From contig NZ_CP025117.1 of the NCBI RefSeq assembly GCF_002831645.1, positions 563,514-627,513 on the forward strand: a stretch of DNA of 64,000 bases, written 5' to 3'. Positions 1-34,460 of the stretch are shown piece by piece. The stretch's first letter is position 1. Each line of letters starts with the position of its first letter. This DNA comes from Olleya sp. Bg11-27. GTDB lineage: Bacteria; Bacteroidota; Bacteroidia; Flavobacteriales; Flavobacteriaceae. The position numbers were made by a program, and so were the translations under genes. Below the pieces are notes generated by a model. The model did not search any database. It was not told where the DNA came from and saw only the letters and a list, made by a program, of their open reading frames with translations.

Positions 1-420
1 AGAATCTTTTTGGATAGTATTATTAGAGACTACATCATAATAGAGTTTCATTTTTTTAATAGAATCTGAAACTTTAATAATATCACCTTGTAGTTGTATG
101 TTTTTAATCACAACATCACCACTTAGAGTTAGAGAGCTGCTAATACTATCATTTGTATAATCCTTTAATTGGGAGCTTATTGTTTCTGAAAATTCTGGAT
201 GCGTTTCTTTTAAGCTAATTAAATCATACAGCTCTTGTAATTTTTGAGAACTCAGTTCCTGATACTCAAAGGTGTTTAAATCAACAACATCCTTTTTACT
301 TAAAAGCGCTTCACTAGTAACAACCTCATCGGCCCTCATGCTTTCTGGACTAGCTTTTTCTCTACGGTTACTGCATGACACTACTAACAGAATACTAAAA
401 ACGTAAATTATTCTTCTCAT
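1..420 (-). CDS. Partial lipoprotein (N-terminal part; gene runs off window start)
   Basis: ATG at 420-418 on the minus strand. Translation MRRIIYVFSILLVVSCSNRREK has a signal peptide plus lipobox Cys. It overlaps the upstream gene stop in an ATGA junction. Not in the ORF track because it is truncated. Confidence 0.4.
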   Translation of the reverse strand, partial: MRRIIYVFSILLVVSCSNRREKASPESMRADEVVTSEALLSKKDVVDLNTFEYQELSSQKLQELYDLISLKETHPEFSETISSQLKDYTNDSISSSLTLSGDVVIKNIQLQGDIIKVSDSIKKMKLYYDVVSNNTIQKDS

Positions 421-22222: not shown

Positions 22223-23134
22223 ATGCTCGACGTTAAAAACCTTACCTTTTCTTATAATAAAACACCTGTTTTAAAAGATATTTATTTCACTGCTAATCAA
22301 GGTGAAAATGTTGCCATTATTGGCGAAAGTGGCTCAGGAAAAAGCACCTTGCTAAATCTTATTTTTGGCGAATCCGACTTAAATCAAGGCCAGATTTTCT
22401 GGAAAGACAACGAAATTTTAGGCCCTAAATACAATTTAGTTGTCGGTTACGAATTCATGAAATACGTCTCTCAAGAATTTGACTTGATGCCTTTTATAAC
22501 CGTTGAAGAAAATATAGGCAAACACCTGTCTAATTTTTTTCCAGAAGAAAAAAAAGAACGCACCGCAGAACTTCTAGAAGTCGTAGAGCTTACAGAGCTT
22601 GCTAAAACCAAAGTAAAAACTTTAAGTGGTGGACAAAAACAACGTGTAGCATTAGCTCGTGCGTTAGCAAAACAGCCCGAAATTATTTTATTGGACGAGC
22701 CTTTTAGTCATATTGACAACTTCCAAAAACAATCGCTTAGACGTAATGTGTTTAGATATTTAAAAGATAAAAACATTACATGTATCGTTGCAACCCACGA
22801 CAGAGAAGATGTTTTAGGTTTTGCAGACAGAATGATTGTTTTATATGACAACAAAATTGTTGTTAATGATAGCCCAGAAAATTTATTCAAAAATCCAGAA
22901 GCACCATTAATAGCTTCGTTTTTTGGTGAGTTTAATATAATTAACGCCTCGATAATTTATGCGCATCAATTAAAAATGGTATCACATTCTGAGCTTAAAG
23001 CGACTGTAATACATTCTTATTTTAAAGGACACTACTACTTAATTGAAGCTTTATTAGATGACGATATTGTGTTTTTTGAAAACAAAATTTTATTAGAAAA
23101 AAATCAAACCGTTTATCTTCAAAAACAACTATAG
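22223..23134 (+). CDS. ABC transporter ATP-binding protein (solo ATPase)
   Basis: Walker A GESGSGKST, signature LSGGQKQRVALARAL and Walker B ILLDEP. Start moved to the ATG after the upstream terminator; the track ORF starts at 22193, inside the hairpin. Confidence 0.8.
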   Translation: MLDVKNLTFSYNKTPVLKDIYFTANQGENVAIIGESGSGKSTLLNLIFGESDLNQGQIFWKDNEILGPKYNLVVGYEFMKYVSQEFDLMPFITVEENIGKHLSNFFPEEKKERTAELLEVVELTELAKTKVKTLSGGQKQRVALARALAKQPEIILLDEPFSHIDNFQKQSLRRNVFRYLKDKNITCIVATHDREDVLGFADRMIVLYDNKIVVNDSPENLFKNPEAPLIASFFGEFNIINASIIYAHQLKMVSHSELKATVIHSYFKGHYYLIEALLDDDIVFFENKILLEKNQTVYLQKQL

Positions 23135-24850
23135 ATCTTCACGTTCGGCATACTGCAATTCATTAGGTAATTCCACTGAAGAAAACTCCAAATGCAATAC
23201 ACGACGTCTTTTTTGCACCGTTGTTTGAGAAGAGGCATGCAATAATAAAGGTTTTATTAACTGCACACCGCCAGCAGCAACTTCACTGACAAAGGGAATT
23301 GAATTATTAGAAATAAGTTGTATTTCTTCATCATTTAAACGTTTATTGTGTGACCCCGGAATCACTTTTAAAGCCCCATTTTTAATTGTCGTATCATCCA
23401 AATGAATACGCATCGCGAAAGTGTTTTTAGAAATATTTTCAGGTGGACAAACACTAATGACTCCTTTTTTATTAGTCCATGACTTAAACCCCTCAATTTC
23501 TACTTTTTCAGAAACATTTATAGGTACATCTTGATGCCAGCTAACATACCAATTGTCCTTTGGTGATTTATCAAAATAAATAGCTTTAGTTAAAAACACG
23601 TTTTTACTGATTGAGTTAATCAGTTTCTTACAATTCTTATTAAATAAAATATCTTTTAATTCTGGCACCTTTTTTAAGACTTCACGCATTCCAAAAGTCT
23701 GCTCACCATGCGTTTTTATATAAGTATCCAACCTCGCTTTTAGTTTTCTAATATCTCTTTTTGAATACACGTGATTTAAAATTCCAAAACCTTTATACTC
23801 TAATCGTTTTGCAACGGTACGTAGATTCTTATCATTAATTTCTGTCTCGTAAGCATCCACAGCATCATACAAACGTTCTTTTATATTTCGCTTTAAACGT
23901 TCTGGAGCAATTACTTTTACGCCTTCGCCTAGACCTAAAATTTCTTTTTCGAGCTCAAAATTTAGCTGCACGTCCAAAGCTATTGTTACACCATAATTAT
24001 CACGACTAACTTCTCTCTGAGAATGATGAAAAGGTTTCGTTAACACATAAGGCGCGTGTCTATGATTAACGTACAGCAACACAGCATCAGGGTCTAAATG
24101 TGGACTTACAGAAACCCCAATAACATCCTTATAATATGTTTCGGAATTAAATGTTGCATCAAAGACAAAACTATTTTCACTTTTATTTAAGGCAAATATC
24201 CGGTCTAAAGCTAAATTCATTACCCCTTCATTTTTGTTTCGTTTACCTATAATAAACCAGCGGTTTCTAAATTCTTTTAGCAAATACGGATGAAACACAA
24301 AGGTGTTTTCTTGTCTAGCCTTAAAGGATTGGTAAGTAATATCTATCGCTTCTTTCTTCAAAATAAACTGATAGAGTTTATCTAAATATTTTAAACCTTT
24401 TAAGTTGTCATTTTTTTCGAAATCTATTAATGACTTCTCATGTGTTTTTTGAGTATACACATGGTCTTCTAGTTTTTGAACCATGCTACCCAATTCATCA
24501 AAATGAGAAAAACCTTGAAACTGTTTTAAAAAAGAAACCGCTTCCGACAACTTAGTTAAATCTTGATTAGAAATCGGACTATTTGTAATACTATACTCTT
24601 CAGTTTCATATTTATAATACTTCCTATTGTAAACTACAATTGGTGCATTATAACCCAATTTGTCGCTACGCATCATTTGCAAGTCCAATTGCACTGTACG
24701 TTTACTAACATCTACATCTTTACCTTCATAGTCATACAAGGCATCAGAAACCGCTTCAATTAAATCATTAAGCGTCCATTGCTTAAAATTGTTTTGAAGG
24801 CATTTATCTATGGTTTTGTAGCGGATTAATGCGTTTTTATTTACTGCCAT
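23129..24850 (-). CDS. WYL-domain transcriptional regulator (HTH-WYL-WCX) fused to C-terminal PhyH-like Fe(II)/2OG dioxygenase domain
   Basis: N-terminal HTH (VSKRTVQLDLQMM). WYL core ITYQSF...FHPYLLKEFRNRWFIIGK...LALDRI. WCX-like segment, then WHQD, ALKVIPGSH and LLLHASSQ facial-triad motifs of phytanoyl-CoA dioxygenase-type oxygenases. Confidence 0.6.
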   Translation of the reverse strand: MAVNKNALIRYKTIDKCLQNNFKQWTLNDLIEAVSDALYDYEGKDVDVSKRTVQLDLQMMRSDKLGYNAPIVVYNRKYYKYETEEYSITNSPISNQDLTKLSEAVSFLKQFQGFSHFDELGSMVQKLEDHVYTQKTHEKSLIDFEKNDNLKGLKYLDKLYQFILKKEAIDITYQSFKARQENTFVFHPYLLKEFRNRWFIIGKRNKNEGVMNLALDRIFALNKSENSFVFDATFNSETYYKDVIGVSVSPHLDPDAVLLYVNHRHAPYVLTKPFHHSQREVSRDNYGVTIALDVQLNFELEKEILGLGEGVKVIAPERLKRNIKERLYDAVDAYETEINDKNLRTVAKRLEYKGFGILNHVYSKRDIRKLKARLDTYIKTHGEQTFGMREVLKKVPELKDILFNKNCKKLINSISKNVFLTKAIYFDKSPKDNWYVSWHQDVPINVSEKVEIEGFKSWTNKKGVISVCPPENISKNTFAMRIHLDDTTIKNGALKVIPGSHNKRLNDEEIQLISNNSIPFVSEVAAGGVQLIKPLLLHASSQTTVQKRRRVLHLEFSSVELPNELQYAEREDL

Positions 24851-24890: not shown

Positions 24891-24909
24891 TACGCAAAAA
24901 GATTGCGTA
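24891..24909. promoter_or_regulatory. Perfect palindromic operator TACGCAA-aaaga-TTGCGTA in divergent promoter region
   Basis: Exact 7-bp inverted repeat with a 5-bp spacer, between the WYL-regulator start (24850) and the ORF at 24943. Near-identical copies at 30253 and 32920. Confidence 0.55.
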
Positions 24910-24942: not shown

Positions 24943-25461
24943 ATGGAAGCTTTAAAATTAAAAATATTCGACGTTTTAACTAAGAAAATAGCTGTTTCAG
25001 AATTTGAAAATTGGCTGTATGATTCAGAAGAAATTATAGAAAACATTGAGTTGAATACAATTTATTTTGATGCAATTTCAATTAACTACAAAGGTAAAAA
25101 CTGGAGTACAGATTTAAATAATATAGCCTTAAATTATTTAGGTGAAACCTATAACGAAATAATAGAAATAAATAAATTATGTTCAGCCATAATTGAGTCT
25201 GAGGCTTTTCCAGAAACTCATAATCTTTTAAGCGATTTACAAAGAAATTTTGATTTTGATAAAGACTACTCTGTATTATGGAAATTATATATTTTGAAAG
25301 ATTATTTTGATTTGGTATCCGAAGGTGTTTGCCAAATAGGCACATTTAAAAAAGAAGCAGACTATTATTCAAAAAAAGCCTTAGAAATAATTCTAAAAAA
25401 TGAAAAAATAAACGAAATCAAAACTAAATTAGAAATAATTTTAGAAGATTTTAAACCATAA
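24943..25461 (+). CDS. Hypothetical protein (first gene downstream of operator)
   Basis: 172 aa, no recognisable motif. Confidence 0.45.
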   Translation: MEALKLKIFDVLTKKIAVSEFENWLYDSEEIIENIELNTIYFDAISINYKGKNWSTDLNNIALNYLGETYNEIIEINKLCSAIIESEAFPETHNLLSDLQRNFDFDKDYSVLWKLYILKDYFDLVSEGVCQIGTFKKEADYYSKKALEIILKNEKINEIKTKLEIILEDFKP

Positions 25462-25737
25462 ATCAAAAATTCCTTGCTTTTTTCAAAAAAATATAATACT
25501 TCGTATTATGCAAGCTGATTTTCAAAAAAAGAAAAATAAATTTTGTAAAGTCGAAAAATAATCTAAATATTTGCACTCAGGAAATAGCAATTCCAAACAA
25601 ATACTAAAAATCAATTATTAACAAAACACGAAGCTATGTATATATTCATATCAAATCAAAATCGTCCAAAAGGTATTCTGCCTTTTATGATGCTTCGTGA
25701 GTATTTTAGTTAATACAACTTTTCAAATTATAAATGA

Positions 25738-25778
25738 AAAACCCGAAGCAATTTAAAAACTGTTTCGGGTTTTTTATT
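25738..25778 (+). terminator. Rho-independent terminator (possibly ending a small transcript)
   Basis: aacccgaa...ttcgggtt hairpin plus T-run, ~280 bp downstream of the previous stop codon. Confidence 0.55.
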
Positions 25779-26153
25779 TCCAGTCCAACCAGTTAACATT
25801 TAATTTTATTACTAAAGAAAATAATGTTTTTTTTCTTTATGTAAAGAAGAAAAATAAAACATAACCTTAGTTATGGTTTCTTTTTATCCTGAAAGAGAAA
25901 GGAAAAAAGGGTGTTTTATAGTGATTAAATTAAGTATTAACTGGTGTAAAGCAAGCCTGCTAAAACATTACCCAAAACAGTAGTAAACACAACCAGAATT
26001 ACATTTTATCCGTAGTCGACGCGTTTCAGAATGTATTTCAAAAAAAACAAATTTAAAAATGAAATACACGTATTCAATTTAAGCACAGATTCCAAATTGG
26101 GAGTAATTACAGGAATCATTTAAAACAGACAAAACCAATAAAAAAAATGTCTA

Positions 26154-26843
26154 ATGAAACCAGTAAACATAAAAACAACGCGACAAAAAGAAGTGCGTCG
26201 TTTACAAAAGAGACAACAGGAAATTTGGAAACTTCAACGAGCGTTAGGTTATACAAAATTAGATAAACCTATACGTCACGGTTGGTACAAGGAAATTGTA
26301 ATGACTAATCGTATAGAAATCTATAGAAATAAGGATTTGATTTTAGAAATCTACGAAAAGCTTGAAAAAGCCTTTTGGGCGAAGACTAAAGAGAAAGCTG
26401 CCTTTAAATGGCAACACCAAACATCAATACATCTTATTTATAAAGATATTCCGACTCTAAGTAAACGGCAATTTAATAAGCTAAGTGATGGCGCAAAACA
26501 GTTATGTATTCCGTTTGAATATTATACGAGAAAACAGAAATTAAGAACTCGATTTTATACTAAAATTCCAAAAGGCTCTTATAAAATTAAATTTACAAGA
26601 GCATACATAACACATAGACAACGTATAGATCCTGAAATAATTAGCGAAACCGATTACATCGCTTCAAAGCTTAATAAAAAAGGATATTATAACATCGCAG
26701 AAGCTTCAAATCCTTGGAAAGATGACTGGAATGACTCTAGTTACAAACAAGAACAATTAAGAACAAAAAGAGGTCTGAATGAGCTAAAAAAATATGCTCT
26801 AGAAGATATCATTAAAGACACCATATTATGGGAAAGAAATTAA
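26154..26843 (+). CDS. Hypothetical highly basic protein, translationally coupled to rtcB
   Basis: 229 aa, Lys/Arg-rich (TRQKEVRRLQKRQQ...). Overlaps the rtcB start by 16 bp. No known domain recognised. Confidence 0.45.
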   Translation: MKPVNIKTTRQKEVRRLQKRQQEIWKLQRALGYTKLDKPIRHGWYKEIVMTNRIEIYRNKDLILEIYEKLEKAFWAKTKEKAAFKWQHQTSIHLIYKDIPTLSKRQFNKLSDGAKQLCIPFEYYTRKQKLRTRFYTKIPKGSYKIKFTRAYITHRQRIDPEIISETDYIASKLNKKGYYNIAEASNPWKDDWNDSSYKQEQLRTKRGLNELKKYALEDIIKDTILWERN

Positions 26844-28219
26844 GCGGAAAAGACTTAATCAAATTAGGCTTTCCAAAAAACAACAGTATTAATGTGACTT
26901 TAGGTCAAATTAATCGCTATCAAAAACGCGTTAAAAAAGAACGGATATTAGAAGACGCAAAAAAAGTATTATTACATCCAGAAAATTATAAAGGCGATGG
27001 CATTTGGGGAAAAATAGCAGAAAGCCTGCTAGACCCAGTAAACGTAACAAAGCAAAAGTTAAACACACATCGTGTGCCATTTCAAATTTATGGAGAGCAT
27101 GAGATTGACGACCAAGCAAAATACCAATTGTACGACGCTTTAAAACTACCTATTGCAGTTGCAGGTGCTTTAATGCCCGATGCCCACGTAGGTTATGGCT
27201 TACCAATTGGTGGTGTTTTAGCAACAAAAAATGCAGTAATTCCTTATGGAGTAGGCGTAGATATTGGATGCAGAATGTGTTTAACTATTTATCCAGTAAA
27301 AGCTTCTTATTTAAAAGGTAAAAAACATCAATTGGAGACTATTTTGTCTGAACACACAAAGTTTGGAATGTATGAAACACATAAAACTAAGCATGATGAT
27401 CCTATTTTTGAGCGTGACGAATTTAAAATCATTCCGTTAGTAAAACGCTTAAAAGACAAAGCCTTTAAGCAATTAGGAACCTCTGGTGGAGGGAATCATT
27501 TTGTAGAATTTGGAGAGGTAAGCATTACAGATATTAATAACGAATGGGATTTACCATTAGGAGAATACCTAGGTGTTTTATCGCATAGTGGCTCACGTGG
27601 TTTAGGCGCGAACATCGCTAAACACTATACATATTTAGCAACAAAGCAATGTCCGTTACCAAAACACGTACAACATTTAGCATGGCTAGATTTAAATACA
27701 CACGACGGACAAGAATACTGGTTAGCTATGAATTTAGCTGGAGATTATGCACAAGCATGCCATGACAACATTCATAAGCGAATAGCCAAATTATTGGGAG
27801 AAAGACCGCTTGCTAAAATAGCCAATCATCACAATTTTGCTTGGAAAGAAAATGTGAACGGAGAAGACTGTATAGTCCACAGAAAAGGAGCAACACCAGC
27901 TAAAAAGGGAGCGCTAGGTATTATTCCAGGATCTATGACGGCACCAGGGTTTATAGTACGCGGCCTAGGAAATAAAGACAGCTTACAATCGGCATCGCAC
28001 GGTGCGGGCAGACTATTATCTAGACGACAATGTAAAATGACATTAACACAAAGTGCCGTAAAAAAAGAATTACAAAAACACGACGTCTCTTTAATTGGCG
28101 GTGGTATTGACGAAGCTCCAATGGCTTATAAAAACATTGAAAGCGTCATGCAAAACCAATTAGAACTAGTGGAAGTCGTTGGCAAGTTTACGCCTAAAAT
28201 TGTAAGAATGGCAAGGTAA
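26828..28219 (+). CDS. rtcB: RtcB-family RNA 3'-phosphate ligase (paralog 1) with ~90-aa N-terminal extension
   Basis: Motifs MPDAHVGYG, GGVLA, GGNHF, SHSGSRGLG, ANHHNFAW and HRKGATPA. Confidence 0.9.
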   Translation: MGKKLSGKDLIKLGFPKNNSINVTLGQINRYQKRVKKERILEDAKKVLLHPENYKGDGIWGKIAESLLDPVNVTKQKLNTHRVPFQIYGEHEIDDQAKYQLYDALKLPIAVAGALMPDAHVGYGLPIGGVLATKNAVIPYGVGVDIGCRMCLTIYPVKASYLKGKKHQLETILSEHTKFGMYETHKTKHDDPIFERDEFKIIPLVKRLKDKAFKQLGTSGGGNHFVEFGEVSITDINNEWDLPLGEYLGVLSHSGSRGLGANIAKHYTYLATKQCPLPKHVQHLAWLDLNTHDGQEYWLAMNLAGDYAQACHDNIHKRIAKLLGERPLAKIANHHNFAWKENVNGEDCIVHRKGATPAKKGALGIIPGSMTAPGFIVRGLGNKDSLQSASHGAGRLLSRRQCKMTLTQSAVKKELQKHDVSLIGGGIDEAPMAYKNIESVMQNQLELVEVVGKFTPKIVRMAR

Positions 28220-28286
28220 TAAACGTTAGGCGTTACCTAAAAAGGTCGGGCTCTCGGCAGTCGCTCTCTTCGAGGAGCTTCAACAA

Positions 28287-28877
28287 ATGCCTCCATCCCT
28301 AACGCAAAAAAAACAGAAAACAATGGAACAAAATCATAACATAAAAAGATACGGAGAACAATGGCCAAGCTATAGAATAAATCAAGGTTTGGACATTTTA
28401 AATAAATTAAAAACATGGGTTGTAATTTCTGGAGGTTGGGCATGGCATTTTATGTCACCAGAAGATCATACAGAATATAAACATGCACACGACCATAAGG
28501 ATATAGACATTTTTGTAAACCCTAAAAATGTGGCAGAAGTAATGGTAATATTAACTAAAGACGGTTTTGAAAAAGTCTGGACAAGATACGACCACATGCC
28601 AAGTAATGAAAACTTTAGACGCTACGAGAAATTAGATTGGTTAGATAATGGGAAGCAAGTAAGAGTGACAATAGATTTTTTCGAATCTAGTACTGTTGAA
28701 ACTACTAAAGTAAACGGTTGGAATTTAGTAGAACCTAAAACCTTATTAAGTTATTACTCCAACATTCATTCTAGTGATAAATGCTGGGCAGTAAAAGCAG
28801 CACTGCAATTAATTGAAAAAGGAAAAAGCCCCATAGGCAGTGCTTTATTATCTAAAAATCCTTTAGAAAAAGTATAG
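28287..28877 (+). CDS. Lnu/ANT(2'')-like nucleotidyltransferase-fold protein (start may be Met at 28323)
   Basis: VISGGWAWHF...HKDIDIFV matches the hG[GS]...DhD minimal NTase signature. It resembles lincosamide nucleotidyltransferase LnuA (LDGGWGVDVL...HRDIDIDF). Confidence 0.5.
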   Translation: MPPSLTQKKQKTMEQNHNIKRYGEQWPSYRINQGLDILNKLKTWVVISGGWAWHFMSPEDHTEYKHAHDHKDIDIFVNPKNVAEVMVILTKDGFEKVWTRYDHMPSNENFRRYEKLDWLDNGKQVRVTIDFFESSTVETTKVNGWNLVEPKTLLSYYSNIHSSDKCWAVKAALQLIEKGKSPIGSALLSKNPLEKV

Positions 28878-28993
28878 TAAAAATATTAGGGTGTTCCTCT
28901 AAAAAGAAACGGACAAGCATGCGCTTTGGTATGACTTAGCGCATCCGTTTTAAGCTACAGAAATAACTTAATAATTAGAAAACAATATTAAAA

Positions 28994-29689
28994 ATGAAAA
29001 CTAAAATAATACAAATAACCTCAGGTCGAGGACCATCAGAATGCTGTTGGGTTGTGGCTCAAGTTCTAAAACATTTTTTAGAAGCTATAAAGCAAAATGG
29101 TATTGATTATAAAATATTACAAAGAGAAAAAGGCATTGAAAACATGACATTACAATCTGTCACTGTTCAATTAAAAGCAAAAACTCTAAATCAATTTTTA
29201 AGTCAATGGATTGGCACAATACAGTGGGTAGGTGTTTCAAAGTTCAGACCACAACACAAACGCAAAAATTGGTTTGTTGCTTTAAATGAAATAGAACAGA
29301 AACAACACTTTGAAATTAATGAAAACGATATTTCATATCAAGCCACAAGAAGTTCTGGACCTGGAGGACAACATGTAAACAAAGTAAGTTCGGCTATTAG
29401 AGCTATTCACGAACCAACTAAAACACAAGTATTAGTCATGGACAGTCGCTCGCAACATCAAAACAAAAAAATTGCTAAAACACGTTTACAAGAAAAAGTT
29501 ACAGAAATACAATTGCAAAGACTAAAGTCTAGCATTAAAAATCAATGGGAGAACCACTTAAACATAGAACGTGGTAATCCAATACAAGTTTTTAAAGGAT
29601 TCGATTTTAAAAAAAACACAATTGTAAAAACGTATAAAAAACAAGGTAATACATTAAAAAATGAATTGCGAGAACAATTAAACAACTAA
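28994..29689 (+). CDS. prfH: Peptide chain release factor H
   Basis: Matches E. coli PrfH: SGRGPSECC, GTIQW, RKNWF, RSSGPGGQHVNK (GGQ), SRSQHQNK and IERGNP. The short 231-aa form lacks the codon-recognition domain. Confidence 0.85.
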   Translation: MKTKIIQITSGRGPSECCWVVAQVLKHFLEAIKQNGIDYKILQREKGIENMTLQSVTVQLKAKTLNQFLSQWIGTIQWVGVSKFRPQHKRKNWFVALNEIEQKQHFEINENDISYQATRSSGPGGQHVNKVSSAIRAIHEPTKTQVLVMDSRSQHQNKKIAKTRLQEKVTEIQLQRLKSSIKNQWENHLNIERGNPIQVFKGFDFKKNTIVKTYKKQGNTLKNELREQLNN

Positions 29690-29693
29690 AACA

Positions 29694-30245
29694 ATGGACA
29701 CAAACTTGTTAAACAACTACGTGCTTAAAGCCATAGATGCTTATCCATATGAGTTAGAAGAAACCGTAGAAAATTTAAATTATGCCTTGTCTTACGAAAG
29801 CAATAACGCTTACGCCTTATACTTAATGGCACGTTTGCAGGCAGAGCAATTTGGAGACTACGAAAAAGCCAAGCACTATTATGCCGAAGCTTTAGCTAAT
29901 AAAATGGATTTTCAGAGAGCATACCCAAAATACATACAAGTATTACTGGATAACGAAGACTTAGATGAAGCCAAAAAACTAATTGATTTTGCCTTAACCA
30001 TAAAAGGCATTGACAAAAGTGCTATTTGGGAGAAACAAGCTCAGATTTTTGAAATAAAACAAGAGTACAAAACCGCAATTAAAACACTAAAGAAAGCAAA
30101 ATTATTTGGATTTAACAATGACTTTATAAGCTATATAGATGCTGAGATTTCAAGAAATAAAAACAAAATGAAATCTAAACAGAAGCCATCCAAAAGTAAA
30201 GCGAAGAAAAAAAAGTGTAGAAAAAAGAAGAAAAAAACAAATTAA
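29694..30245 (+). CDS. TPR-like helical protein with poly-Lys C-terminal tail
   Basis: Starts 5 bp after the prfH stop. Helical repeats (AYALYLMARLQAEQFGDYEKAKHYYAEAL). C-terminus KSKQKPSKSKAKKKKCRKKKKK. Confidence 0.45.
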   Translation: MDTNLLNNYVLKAIDAYPYELEETVENLNYALSYESNNAYALYLMARLQAEQFGDYEKAKHYYAEALANKMDFQRAYPKYIQVLLDNEDLDEAKKLIDFALTIKGIDKSAIWEKQAQIFEIKQEYKTAIKTLKKAKLFGFNNDFISYIDAEISRNKNKMKSKQKPSKSKAKKKKCRKKKKKTN

Positions 30246-30252
30246 ATCAAAC

Positions 30253-30271
30253 TACGCAAAAAGATTGCGCA
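30253..30271. promoter_or_regulatory. Operator copy 2 (TACGCAA-aaaga-TTGCGCA) plus conserved promoter module
   Basis: One mismatch to the palindrome at 24891. Followed by tataatatttgcagtgtaatta, which matches the Bacteroidetes -7 TAnnTTTG element. Upstream of the 30382 ORF and the tRNA-like array. Confidence 0.5.
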
Positions 30272-30381: not shown

Positions 30382-30675
30382 ATGGAACATTTAAACATTG
30401 ACACATTATTAAAAAAGAACGAAGACTTTTGGAAATCACTTGAAATACACTGCTTAGTTGAATGTTGTGGCATAGATGCTTTTGCTTTTGATAAAAAAAA
30501 CATTCAAAAAGAGAGTATAAACCATGACGTATCAGACATACAAAATAATTTGAAATTAATAATTAAACAAATTGACATCACAGAGTCAAAAAAAATATCC
30601 AGTGACTTATTCAATTTATATGAAAACAAAAAAGTTTTTAAAAATAGAATTAACGAGATTTTAAAAGTTCTTTAA
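30382..30675 (+). CDS. Hypothetical small protein
   Basis: 97 aa. Immediately upstream of the tRNA-like array and downstream of operator copy 2. Confidence 0.35.
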   Translation: MEHLNIDTLLKKNEDFWKSLEIHCLVECCGIDAFAFDKKNIQKESINHDVSDIQNNLKLIIKQIDITESKKISSDLFNLYENKKVFKNRINEILKVL

Positions 30676-30687
30676 AATATTAAAATT

Positions 30688-30772
30688 GGAAGTATTGAGC
30701 AATTGGTTGGCTCGCGAGACTATAACTCTCGTTTCTTAATTGAACATGTAGGTTCGAGTCCTACTACTTCCA
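30688..30772 (+). tRNA. tRNA-like gene, type-II (long variable arm) cloverleaf with non-canonical anticodon loop CUAUAAC (anticodon AUA)
   Basis: Acceptor ggaagta/tacttcc with G1-C72 and A73. D-arm gagc-aattggttg-gctc. Anticodon stem cgaga/tctcg. 16-nt variable arm. T-arm gtagg-ttcgagt-cctac. No encoded CCA. Tyr-like identity elements but A34 instead of G34. Confidence 0.5.
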
Positions 30773-30900
30773 CATCAAGCGTGTCTTGTTACGTGTTTCG
30801 GTATAGCACTATTGTATAAATCCTTGCGGTTTCGCATCAGGTTTTTATATCCAACTTGACTTGAAGGCTTTCGGTTATTTAGCCAAATAAATAATCTCCT

Positions 30901-31046
30901 CTATGTACGCAGGTTCGAATCCTGCCTTCATTAATTTGAAGTAGCTAAGTCCGGTTAAGCAATAGAAACAATCGCAGGTTCGAATCCTGCCAAGATCAAA
31001 ATGATCTTGTGGTCGAGCGGTCAAAGACAATGGACTCACACTCCAT
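30901..31046 (+). ncRNA. Array of tRNA-derived fragments: two T-arm units plus a split 3'-half/5'-half tRNA-like unit
   Basis: T-arm gcagg-ttcgaat-cctgc at 30909-30925 and 30974-30990. The second is followed by caagatc-aaaat-gatcttg, an acceptor 3' strand directly joined to a complementary acceptor 5' strand. Then comes a type-II-like D-arm gtc-gagcggtcaaa-gac and an anticodon-like hairpin atgga-ctcacac-tccat. No downstream T-arm. Confidence 0.4.
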
Positions 31047-31450
31047 TATTTCACGAAGAAGGTCACTTATAAAAATCGACCACTAAGTGTGTCTCACTTA
31101 AAAAGGCAAAAAACAAAGTAAAGGCGAACTCGCTAAAACAATTTGTTGTTGCAGCAGTCCGGAAAATACCTTGAAATACAAATGTATTTTTAGATGCCTT
31201 AGGTATTCTTTTAAAGACTCATTAGTTAAAATACAGTTTGAAAATCATTCAAATTACAATTAATTAATCTTCAATAAAACGCTACCTAAATCGCTTCAAA
31301 TCAATTGTCTTTCCGTAGTTAAAAGGATGGTTTGCTTTTGCTTTGTTTTAATAGAGAATAGCCATTTCAGCTTGACTGAAATTCTATTATAAATGATTAA
31401 TAGTTCTGAAATAAAAAACAAAAACAACAGAACATTAAAAACAAAATAAG

Positions 31451-32551
31451 ATGAAAAGAGTAAGAATTCATGCAGGAAAAGTCGGTTTAGTATTTAAAAA
31501 CGGTGATTACAAACGCGTCATCACGCAAGGATCACATTGGCTAACGTTTAATGAGCATGTAATAGATTATAGCTTAAACCTCGCCTTTAATACACCAACA
31601 GCATTGGAGGTTTTACTTAAAGATCAAACATTAGCAGCGATGTTACACGTAATCAATGTAGAAGACAATCAAATGGTATTAATGTATAGCAATAGCAACT
31701 TTAAAAACGTATTAACAGCAGGACGACATACCTTTTGGAAAGACTTAATCCACTATAAATTTACCACTGTAGATTTAAACGATATTATTATTCCAGAAAC
31801 AATAAACAAAGCCTTATACACCAACACTGTTTTACGTCCATACATCCGTACGTTTGAGGTTGCTGCACATGAAAAAGCAGTTTTAATTATTGATGATACA
31901 TTTGATAAAATTTTAGATCATGGCACATACCATTACTGGAGAAATAATCAAACTATTAAAATTGCGAAAGCAGATTTACGTCAATTACAATTAGAAGTTG
32001 GAGGTCAAGAGTTATTAACCAAAGACAAAGCCACAGTGCGCATTAATTTTTACGCACAATACAAAGTTACAGATATCGAAACTGCTTTATTGCGTAACAA
32101 AGATTACGAAAAACAATTGTACACCAACTTGCAATTAGCATTAAGGTCTTTTATTGGAGTCTACACTTTAGACGAGTTGTTAGACCAAAAAGACAACATT
32201 GCAAAAGCAGTAGTAGAAGATGTACAAACACAAGCACAAAAGTTAGGTGTAACCGTTTTACATGCAGGTTTAAGAGATGTGATTTTACCAGGAGACATGA
32301 AAGAAATCATGAATCAAGTATTAATCGCTCAGAAAAAAGCGCAAGCCAATGTAGTAACAAGACGAGAAGAAACCGCGTCTACACGTAGCTTGTTGAACAC
32401 TGCAAAATTAATGGAAGACAACAGCATGTTGTTTAAATTAAAAGAGATGGAATATGTAGAGAAAATTGCTGAAAAAATTGGCGAAATTACAGTGGCTGGA
32501 AACGGTAACGTAATCGAGCAATTAAAAGATATTTTTTCTGTAAATAAGTAA
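31451..32551 (+). CDS. SPFH/band-7 (stomatin/prohibitin/flotillin) domain protein
   Basis: SPFH-like core (QELLTKDKATVRINFYAQYKVTD...LRDVILPGDM...IAQKKAQANV) with a C-terminal coiled-coil. Length 366 aa. Confidence 0.75.
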   Translation: MKRVRIHAGKVGLVFKNGDYKRVITQGSHWLTFNEHVIDYSLNLAFNTPTALEVLLKDQTLAAMLHVINVEDNQMVLMYSNSNFKNVLTAGRHTFWKDLIHYKFTTVDLNDIIIPETINKALYTNTVLRPYIRTFEVAAHEKAVLIIDDTFDKILDHGTYHYWRNNQTIKIAKADLRQLQLEVGGQELLTKDKATVRINFYAQYKVTDIETALLRNKDYEKQLYTNLQLALRSFIGVYTLDELLDQKDNIAKAVVEDVQTQAQKLGVTVLHAGLRDVILPGDMKEIMNQVLIAQKKAQANVVTRREETASTRSLLNTAKLMEDNSMLFKLKEMEYVEKIAEKIGEITVAGNGNVIEQLKDIFSVNK

Positions 32552-32823: not shown

Positions 32824-32908
32824 GTTACTCCTGCAAGGTTTCCAAAACCTTGTAGGTTTAATAAACATAAAACCACACCTACAAGGTTTTAGAAATCTTG
32901 CAGGACAA
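32824..32908. repeat. Extended imperfect inverted repeat (long interrupted hairpin)
   Basis: tcctgcaagg-tttccaaaa-ccttgtagg ...22 nt... cctacaagg-ttttagaaat-cttgcagga. Both stem segments are exactly complementary. Confidence 0.45.
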
Positions 32909-32919
32909 TTAAACTTAAC

Positions 32920-32938
32920 TACGCAAAAAGATCGCGTA
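32920..32938. promoter_or_regulatory. Operator copy 3 (TACGCAA-aaaga-TCGCGTA) plus conserved promoter module upstream of rtcB paralog 2
   Basis: One mismatch to the palindrome. Flanked by the same ~55-bp module as copy 2 (aactacgcaaaaagat...tatcatatttgtagtgtaatta). Confidence 0.5.
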
Positions 32939-32967: not shown

Positions 32968-34419
<1,452 letters not shown>

Positions 34420-34428
34420 AAAGGAAAA

Positions 34429-34460
34429 AGCGGACCAGCTTAGGTTGGTCTGCTTTGTTA
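34429..34460. terminator. Hairpin terminator between convergent rtcB2 and PPTase genes
   Basis: gcggacca...tggtctgc hairpin with flanking A/T runs. Confidence 0.55.

Follow-up and report, generated by a model that had tools for sequence, protein, structure and literature searches.

A WYL-type regulator fused to a PhyH-type oxygenase, and a candidate operator that accompanies RNA-repair genes in Bacteroidota

The DNA analysed here, referred to as the window, is a stretch of 64,000 nucleotides (nt) from Olleya sp. Bg11-27 (contig NZ_CP025117.1, positions 563,514 to 627,513 of the forward strand), and it carries on its minus strand, at 23129..24850, a gene for a 573-amino-acid (aa) protein in which a winged helix-turn-helix (wHTH), a three-helix bundle (3HB), a WYL domain and a WCX domain are followed by a PhyH-type Fe(II)/2-oxoglutarate (2OG) oxygenase. 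We lean towards the view that an RNA/ribosome-repair regulon of Bacteroidota has in this fusion protein its dedicated transcription factor, made up of a module like that of the regulator DriD and an accessory oxygenase. Behind this view stand a candidate operator at three promoters of the window, its recurrence in orthologous loci and in metagenomes, and the RNA-repair cassettes that lie downstream of it. The gene is one uninterrupted frame in the analysis of open reading frames (ORFs), and its three Pfam domains recur together in more than 100 orthologues with lengths of 572-589 aa, so that a frameshift or two-gene artefact could be excluded.

The domain boundaries were drawn from Pfam, the orthologues and an AlphaFold2 model whose mean predicted local distance difference test (pLDDT) was 81, with the individual domains confident. 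From the N-terminus, all on the minus strand, they are the wHTH DNA-binding domain (residues 1-85; 24596..24850), the three-helix-bundle linker (residues 86-164; 24359..24595), the ligand-binding WYL domain (residues 165-245; 24116..24358; Pfam PF13280, E 8e-11), the dimerisation-type WCX domain (residues 246-336; 23843..24115; PF25583, E 3e-6) and the oxygenase (residues 337-573; 23132..23842). The Pfam matches exceeded their curated cut-offs at residues 155-220 for WYL (42.2 bits against 21.8) and at residues 260-327 for WCX (27.8 against 23.9), as did the PhyH match (PF05721) at residues 417-550 (43.1 against 22), which spanned only positions 91-212 of a profile of 213. No Pfam match to a helix-turn-helix was found in the N-terminus, and the winged domain and helical linker were seen instead in the model and in the alignment to DriD and PafBC. 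Residues 1-85, the best-conserved segment of the protein, were modelled as three helices and a beta-hairpin wing, and the linker as helices 95-109, 120-136 and 153-164, at lower pLDDT; the linker corresponds to the 3HB domain of DriD (PMC13004042). In a Foldseek search of the Protein Data Bank, residues 1-335 matched full-length DriD best (8tp8, E 2e-13) and also PafBC (9fnd), the alignments spanning ~345 columns, and no BrxR or CapW chain was present within the top 50 matches. A close solved relative of the fusion was looked for by sequence and none was found. The preliminary description of this DNA had called residues ~1-335 a complete WYL transcription factor of PafBC/BrxR type, of which the completeness and the kinship to PafBC were borne out, and the likeness to BrxR was not. 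The motifs it had singled out were all in place: the helix-turn-helix motif VSKRTVQLDLQMM at residues 48-60, the WYL core HPYLLKEFRNRWFIIGK at 187-203, and LALDRI at 213-218. Within the core, the strand R195-N-R197-W198-F199 (N196, R197, W198 and F199 invariant, R195 nearly so) is equivalent to the RWHVR motif through which CapW and BrxR contact single-stranded DNA (ssDNA) (PMC11662680). The protein thus belongs to the wHTH-WYL-WCX transcription factors, the DriD/PafBC/BrxR superfamily.

Between the regulator gene and the divergent unit headed by the gene o172 lies the 19-bp TACGCAAAAAGATTGCGTA (operator 1; 24891..24909, plus strand), a palindrome that the preliminary description had placed exactly here and that recurs as a candidate operator at 30253 and 32920. 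Counting its non-palindromic spacer, the 19-mer has three copies in the window at no more than one mismatch, and there were none in 100 shuffles, in which up to two mismatches were allowed. Operator 2 (30253..30271, plus strand, one mismatch) is upstream of a unit containing a small ORF, tRNA-like RNAs and an SPFH gene, and operator 3 (32920..32938, plus strand, one mismatch), whose position is conserved across loci, is 78 nt upstream of the second of two RtcB genes. All three are intergenic and in the same orientation, and in each case 13 nt separate the site from a downstream Bacteroidota -7 box (TAnnTTTG), which puts it at the position expected for a -33 element, with the TTTG of the box at +32..35 behind operators 1 and 2. 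When the pattern T[AG]CGCA-N7-TGCG[CT]A was searched in 79 orthologous loci, it was found ~55-60 nt upstream of the regulator ATG in most site-bearing loci; the position of operator 1 was conserved in nearly all 79, and in many a second copy stood directly upstream of RtcB or of the RNA-cluster unit. Stacking the 142 unique sites produced the consensus ACTACGCAAAAAgATTGCGtA, followed at a fixed distance by taAtaTTTG (TTTG at +32..35), which we take to be the -7 box, and no -33 TTTG at the expected spacing appeared in the stack. Because the -7 box is fixed and a -33 TTTG is missing, the operator is centred at about -33. On the regulator side, the end of the operator was 37-44 nt from the ATG in most loci; it thus adjoins the regulator's own promoter, which implies autoregulation. 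A pseudo-palindrome at the -35-equivalent position, a fixed distance to the downstream box and no upstream element, as found over the 142 sites, is the arrangement of the DriD and PafBC activators. The likeness extends to the DriD box itself, ATACGAC(N7)GTCGTAT (PMC13004042), which shares with the candidate operator its pseudo-palindromic form, half-sites of 6-7 bp with a common TACG core, the N7 spacer, and a promoter placement at -35/-33 with a fixed distance to the -10/-7 box. Just upstream of operator 3, at 32830-32905, a short GC-containing hairpin repeat (ccTGCAAGGTTTccAAAACCTTGtAGG-like) is also present twice, and similar hairpins occur upstream of the regulator in two other loci (L007 and L014). 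A sigma-70 promoter scan of the window was, for Bacteroidota, uninformative.

The neighbourhood was then sampled in 79 species-level genome loci, with RtcB counted for the 54 fused genes that had at least 3 kb of upstream flank. An RtcB-family gene was present within 10 kb in 52 of these 54, always on the opposite strand, and in the simplest loci (L044, L045 and L049) RtcB is the regulator's immediate divergent neighbour. SPFH genes were frequent in fused loci and the block of an RtcB paralogue (RtcB2), a nucleotidyltransferase (NTase)-like ORF and the gene for PrfH was patchy, so that this block could be rejected as the core partner; it is SPFH and the second RtcB that persist. In about 19 loci (Emticicia, Spirosomataceae, Cytophagaceae) the regulator is a stand-alone orthologue of residues 1-335 only, 335-348 aa long with ~56% identity, a stop codon at its end and the same operator. 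The divergent operon there encoded a T4 Rnl1-type RNA ligase with the kinase/HAD-phosphatase PNKP in 8 of the 12 adequately flanked loci, and two others had RtcB and SPFH. In an unbiased test, metagenome contigs were scanned with the operator and its fixed -7 box (21 specified bases), which gave at least 120 stretches, and 80 loci were examined. Among the matches listed, the first downstream gene was RtcB in 30 of the 80, Rsr/Ro60 (TROVE and vWA_Ro60 domains) in 13, a recurring ~770-aa protein in nine, the WYL homologue itself in three, Rnl1/PNKP and SPFH in two each, and, in one each, a DUF2828 protein, a 289-aa protein, and an o172-like gene followed by Hen1 and the kinase-phosphatase-ligase Pnkp; there was no recognised gene in six, and in 12 the flank was too short. 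In 45 of the 80, a WYL homologue lay divergently from the operator-driven unit. Among these listed matches, therefore, the operator retrieved RNA-repair genes almost exclusively. The conserved wHTH and the unchanged operator stay paired across swapped cassettes, which identifies the regulator as the operator's likely binder, and since the cassettes are exchanged behind the same operator and divergent WYL gene, the pair would constitute a general Bacteroidota RNA-repair switch. What the regulator follows, as judged from gene order, is RNA repair as such rather than any single ligase.

Searches of 5.8 billion proteins placed the full-length orthologues, at 60-90% identity, in Algibacter, Olleya, Psychroserpens, Winogradskyella, Lacinutrix and Flavivirga, reaching as far as Flexithrix and Roseivirga, where they are annotated as 'WYL domain-containing protein' or 'phytanoyl-CoA dioxygenase family protein'. 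At 50-90% identity the fusion was found in about 60 Bacteroidota species and is kept across Flavobacteriia, Cytophagia and other classes, with a length of 573-579 aa in almost all members and a constant linker length. Clustering at 50% left only ~15-20 representatives of the fused form, and more than 1000 relatives, mostly of ~335 aa, fell below E 1e-30. The search for the same architecture and its neighbours that the preliminary description had advised thus yielded a sizeable family next to RNA-repair genes. It had described WYL domains as sensors that control defence and damage responses; here no defence genes lie nearby, and the adjoining genes are those of RNA repair. The matches of the fusion in PADLOC are to generic WYL models (WYL model E 5e-21), and a role as a defence-system regulator, as these and CRISPR-associated WYL matches might suggest, was ruled out by the synteny with RNA repair and the lack of nearby defence genes.

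The oxygenase domain has the PhyH fold that had been claimed for it: the Pfam match lies above the cut-off, and in the Foldseek comparison with the Protein Data Bank it aligned with PhyH-type oxygenases, consistent with the double-stranded beta-helix of the PhyH clade. The motifs WHQD (438-441), GALKVIPGSH (492-501) and LLLHASS (535-541) were present as described; they are of PhyH type, although the GSH of the second is a family signature that provides no metal ligand, and the putative facial triad is H439, D441 and H538, with Arg549, 11 residues beyond the distal His, at the 2OG-binding position. These four residues were invariant across 25 orthologues, and, compared at the level of sequence, the triad and Arg549 were intact in 53 of 59 full-length genome members. 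In members with an intact triad, conservation of the C-terminal domain roughly equals that of WYL and WCX. The triad has decayed in at least six lineages, in Aureispira (L048, L050, L057) and in L053, L055, L059 and L060, and C-domain identity has dropped there to 27-40%, with the N-terminal half still at 62-66%. The nearest structures are all of small-molecule oxygenases, and neither the AlkB/TET-type fold sub-class nor a nucleotide-recognition lid was found in the domain; in NCBIfam, the C-terminal part weakly matched a PhyH-type chlorinating-enzyme model, below threshold. By its residues, then, the domain is predicted to be a catalytically competent oxygenase of small-molecule type with an intact active site.

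PhyH proteins of ~240 aa from Flavobacterium, Chryseobacterium and Cyclobacteriaceae are the closest non-fused relatives of this domain (42-56% identity) and keep the same invariant residues; several of them are less basic than the fused domain, whose isoelectric point (pI) is 9.5. That they might be the split half of such a system was ruled out from three contexts, after murB, beside an SDF transporter and after SusD, in which there was no WYL gene, RtcB or operator. In a neighbour-joining tree of the N-terminal half, computed without support values, the fused proteins formed one clade with four stand-alone members nested inside it, which points to secondary loss of PhyH. The domain was probably gained once, from the generic ~240-aa Bacteroidota PhyH family, and its loss or catalytic degradation in several lineages marks it as accessory. 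On this reading an active enzyme, whose small substrate is probably a general one, was recruited and then kept by selection in most lineages, yet the core switch can do without it. All fusions in the sampled loci accompany RtcB-type cassettes. The metal/cysteine active site of eukaryotic RtcB is sensitive to oxidation, and PYROXD1 protects RTCB; the restriction of an O2/Fe-dependent domain to RtcB-type cassettes is suggestive, by this analogy, of a link to RtcB oxidation, which is speculation.

On these grounds we propose that the N-terminal DriD-like module (wHTH, 3HB, WYL and WCX) would bind the 19-bp TACGCA-N7-TGCGTA, presumably as a dimer, and that the operator would take the place of the -33 element at three promoters of the window. 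Promoter 1 would drive o172 and the RtcB2-PrfH-TPR genes, promoter 2 the small ORF, the tRNA-like RNAs and SPFH, and promoter 3 the core RtcB, and operator 1, being beside the regulator's own promoter, would also provide for autoregulation. The WYL domain would bind a single-stranded nucleic-acid damage signal, most plausibly RNA fragments, which would license DNA binding, and the ligand-bound regulator would recruit RNA polymerase. That the protein activates transcription, in analogy to DriD and PafBC, we consider probable. Whether its ligand is a single-stranded RNA damage product is, in our estimate, an even call, one that draws on the RNA-repair regulon, the conserved R-N-R-W-F strand and the precedent of WYL1, in which a WYL domain binds single-stranded RNA (PMC6547453). 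More tentatively, the oxygenase may be a modulatory second input to the regulator, an accessory 'trigger enzyme' in which the occupancy or turnover of Fe(II), 2OG, O2 or a small substrate would tune the response.

Several points weigh against this proposal. The pTM (predicted template modelling) score of the full-length AlphaFold2 model is 0.48, which makes the relative placement of its domains unreliable, and the tree behind the history of the oxygenase lacks support values. Bacteroidota promoters show weak conservation of the -33 element in any case, and a repressor would fit an operator centred at about -33 just as well. To our knowledge, the characterised WYL transcription factors all sense ssDNA or c-di-GMP, not RNA. 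For the oxygenase, the strict conservation of the full catalytic set makes real turnover on a specific substrate likely, rather than pure sensing, and phylogeny confounds the association of PhyH with RtcB-type cassettes.

A possible, if doubtful, alternative keeps the regulon and reverses the sign: a repressor of BrxR/CapW type would sit over -33 in unstressed cells, and its release by a ligand would de-repress the repair genes and the regulator itself. Such a protein would be well placed, as in all three units the operator covers part of the core promoter region and is only 37-44 nt from the regulator start codon, and the release of wHTH-WYL-WCX repressors from DNA by ssDNA is well documented (PMC11662680). 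The structural evidence favours activation, the top matches being the activators DriD and PafBC with neither BrxR nor CapW in the top 50, and so does the promoter, since the DriD-like N7 spacing, the fixed distance to the -7 box and the lack of a recognisable -33 are what is seen at DriD promoters, whereas a repressed promoter would be expected to retain a -33 element of its own.

Other alternatives concern the oxygenase. It is unlikely, in our estimate, that it is a nucleic-acid effector whose target for oxidation would be a damaged base, the tRNA-like RNA or an RNA-derived ligand bound in the WYL domain; the basic pI of the fused domain hints weakly at proximity to nucleic acid, and the structural neighbours described above are enzymes of small molecules. 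Variants of that reading, to which we give the same low probability, would have the enzyme repair RNA in the manner of Ada or AlkB, or destroy the inducer and so limit its own response like the ring-nuclease CARF proteins. An enzyme-coupled sensor, in which WYL captures an RNA-damage product or tRNA-like RNA and PhyH modifies that ligand, or O2, Fe and 2OG gate the response, appears improbable. To much the same degree we doubt that the fusion has no regulatory meaning, with a housekeeping small-molecule hydroxylase joined by chance and merely co-expressed. The loss or degradation of PhyH in several lineages whose operator and regulon are intact would fit a chance event, as would the occurrence of close stand-alone homologues in unrelated contexts; yet the active site is intact, conservation in Flavobacteriia, Cytophagia and other classes is near that of the N-terminal half, the linker does not vary in the 573-579-aa members, and the fusion keeps company only with RtcB-type cassettes in the sampled loci. 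Taken with all of this, the DriD-like regulator with an accessory oxygenase remains the reading we lean towards.

Divergent from the regulator, the gene order in the window is o172, a 229-aa ORF, the RtcB paralogue, the NTase-like ORF, PrfH and a tetratricopeptide repeat (TPR) protein, followed by a 97-aa ORF, a tRNA-like gene with further elements, SPFH/Band-7 and the second RtcB, all on the plus strand. The first gene behind operator 1, o172 (24943-25461; 172 aa), had no Pfam or NCBIfam match. Many loci have a homologue of it at the equivalent place, and in one metagenome locus Hen1-Pnkp is preceded by a distant relative (L091, 3454-4056). Between o172 and the RtcB2 block is a 700-bp non-coding gap (25462-26153) with a long hairpin at ~25628-25700 and, after it, a terminator-like stem and T-run at ~25741-25785; no significant Rfam match to known RNA families was found in the gap. 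The patchy block (26154..30245), present in only some orthologous loci, begins with the 229-aa ORF, which has no known domain and extends 16 nt into the RtcB paralogue. It continues with RtcB2 (26828-28219; Pfam RtcB, E 1e-81), the 196-aa NTase-like ORF (28287-28877), which had only a weak aminoglycoside adenylyltransferase match and no match to the RlaP family, and PrfH (28994-29689), with an RF-1 domain and an NCBIfam PrfH equivalog score of 217.9 bits against a cut-off of 166.65; the TPR protein (29694-30245) is its last gene. Both the 229-aa ORF and the NTase-like ORF travel with the RtcB2-PrfH block.

Behind operator 2 are the 97-aa ORF (30382-30675), the tRNA-like gene (30688-30773; Rfam tRNA 52 bits, also called by ARAGORN) and, before the SPFH gene, further tRNA-like or weakly YrlA-like elements (30880-31065, from Rfam), the YrlA (Y RNA-like) match scoring 27.9 bits, below the gathering score of 69. 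The tRNA-like gene was called as tRNA-Tyr, with anticodon ATA here and GTA in five orthologous loci, and its stems show compensatory changes across six loci, from which it follows that it is a real structured RNA. The SPFH/Band-7 gene (31451..32551; Pfam Band_7, E 2e-30) is a conserved partner in many loci. The core RtcB-family RNA ligase (33016-34419; Pfam RtcB, E 1e-38), 84-90% identical among Flavobacteriaceae loci, is followed by a terminator-like hairpin at 34427-34456. Outside the window, the ~770-aa protein has a zinc-ribbon-like CxxC...CxxC motif and no Pfam match (L093, 3263-5569 in operator-oriented coordinates); it occurs also in L090, L109, L111, L117, L119, L137, L143 and L153, and after RtcB in L138 and L163, and is a candidate RNA-repair component. 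A DUF2828/DUF7788 protein with a vWA-like DxSGS motif was seen behind the operator in L108 (883-2478, operator-oriented) and L133, in one case after RtcB. In five Cytophagia loci (L034, L035, L036, L043 and L052), arrays of tRNA genes (Asn-GTT, Lys-TTT, Pro-TGG, His/Tyr and others) lie ~0.3-3 kb downstream of the fusion on the same strand, a set that presumably resembles the targets of anticodon nucleases.

Much of this locus has precedents. DriD of Caulobacter and PafBC of actinobacteria are activators of non-SOS responses to DNA damage with ssDNA as their demonstrated ligand, and have the same order of wHTH, three-helix bundle, WYL and WCX; the fusion differs from them in its sequence (~15% identity), in a regulon of RNA rather than DNA repair, in its Bacteroidota-type promoters and in the extra ~235-aa Fe/2OG oxygenase after WCX. 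In proteobacteria rtcBA is activated by RtcR (CARF, sigma54 AAA+ and helix-turn-helix), which, like the fusion, is a dedicated regulator divergent from the RtcB operon and couples a (putative) nucleic-acid or oligonucleotide-sensing domain to a DNA-binding output. The two are not homologous: neither CARF nor sigma54-interacting AAA+ domains were found in the fusion with Pfam and NCBIfam, and there is -7-box geometry in place of a sigma54 promoter. By analogy, the fusion would be a non-homologous functional counterpart of RtcR. The fused PhyH domain is 14-23% identical to SnoK/SnoN, AviO1/EvdO, proline hydroxylase H11, PHYHD1, PHYH and EctD, and differs from these small-molecule enzymes of its clade in being covalently joined to a transcription factor. 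A DNA-binding regulator and an enzyme are united in one polypeptide in the trigger enzymes and enzyme-regulator fusions PutA, BirA, NadR and Ada, and in the fusion, as in these, the state of the enzyme could set transcription, a putative coupling; we know of none among them that uses a WYL module or a 2OG oxygenase.

A repair system of RtcB, SPFH/Band-7 and 'b7a-tRNA' was predicted by Burroughs & Aravind 2016 (NAR 44:8525), as quoted in bioRxiv 10.1101/312249. With RtcB, SPFH/Band-7 and an intervening tRNA-like RNA located together, the window contains this system, to which it adds PrfH and the NTase-like gene, and the tRNA-like gene at 30688-30773 is probably the quoted b7a-tRNA. According to a passing citation (PMC7824862), the same 2016 paper seemingly discussed WYL domains with 2',3'-cyclic RNA ends. 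Of the patchy genes, PrfH and RtcB2 are treated as a ribosome rescue and repair pair (PMC9304027) that is stated to protect E. coli against cleavage of 16S rRNA by colicin E3 (PMC9223846, PMC13166195). The preliminary description knew of no account of a fusion of this kind, and a literature search that did not cover Burroughs & Aravind 2016 likewise found no description of a WYL-dioxygenase fusion, nor of the operator or the joint control of several RNA-repair cassettes; a list of WYL fusions (PMC4012209) has no WYL-dioxygenase entry. WYL regulators and the RtcB/Band-7/tRNA-like system were therefore already known, and what is added here is the regulator-oxygenase fusion, the operator and the control shared by four cassette types.

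The sensing of RNA damage and the induction of RNA repair have so far been understood only for RtcR, in a few proteobacteria. The regulator family, its precise operator and the fixed promoter geometry define a different and widespread switch in Bacteroidota, with a regulon that would span at least four non-homologous cassettes (RtcB/Band-7/tRNA-like, Rnl1 with PNKP, Pnkp/Hen1 and Rsr/Ro60), along with ribosome rescue by PrfH. It makes the inducing signal, and with it RNA-damage sensing in a major phylum, directly testable, and flags o172 and the ~770-aa protein, both operator-driven, as candidate repair factors. The fusion to an oxygenase offers an unexplored route by which metabolic or redox chemistry may enter a WYL regulator. 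Should the protein prove to be an enzyme-coupled sensor, transcription of an RNA-repair regulon that spans the phylum would be under the direct control of oxidative chemistry, and the protein would be the first PhyH-clade oxygenase with nucleic acid as its substrate or partner, as well as the first WYL regulator to carry an enzyme input within itself, a Bacteroidota counterpart of RtcR.

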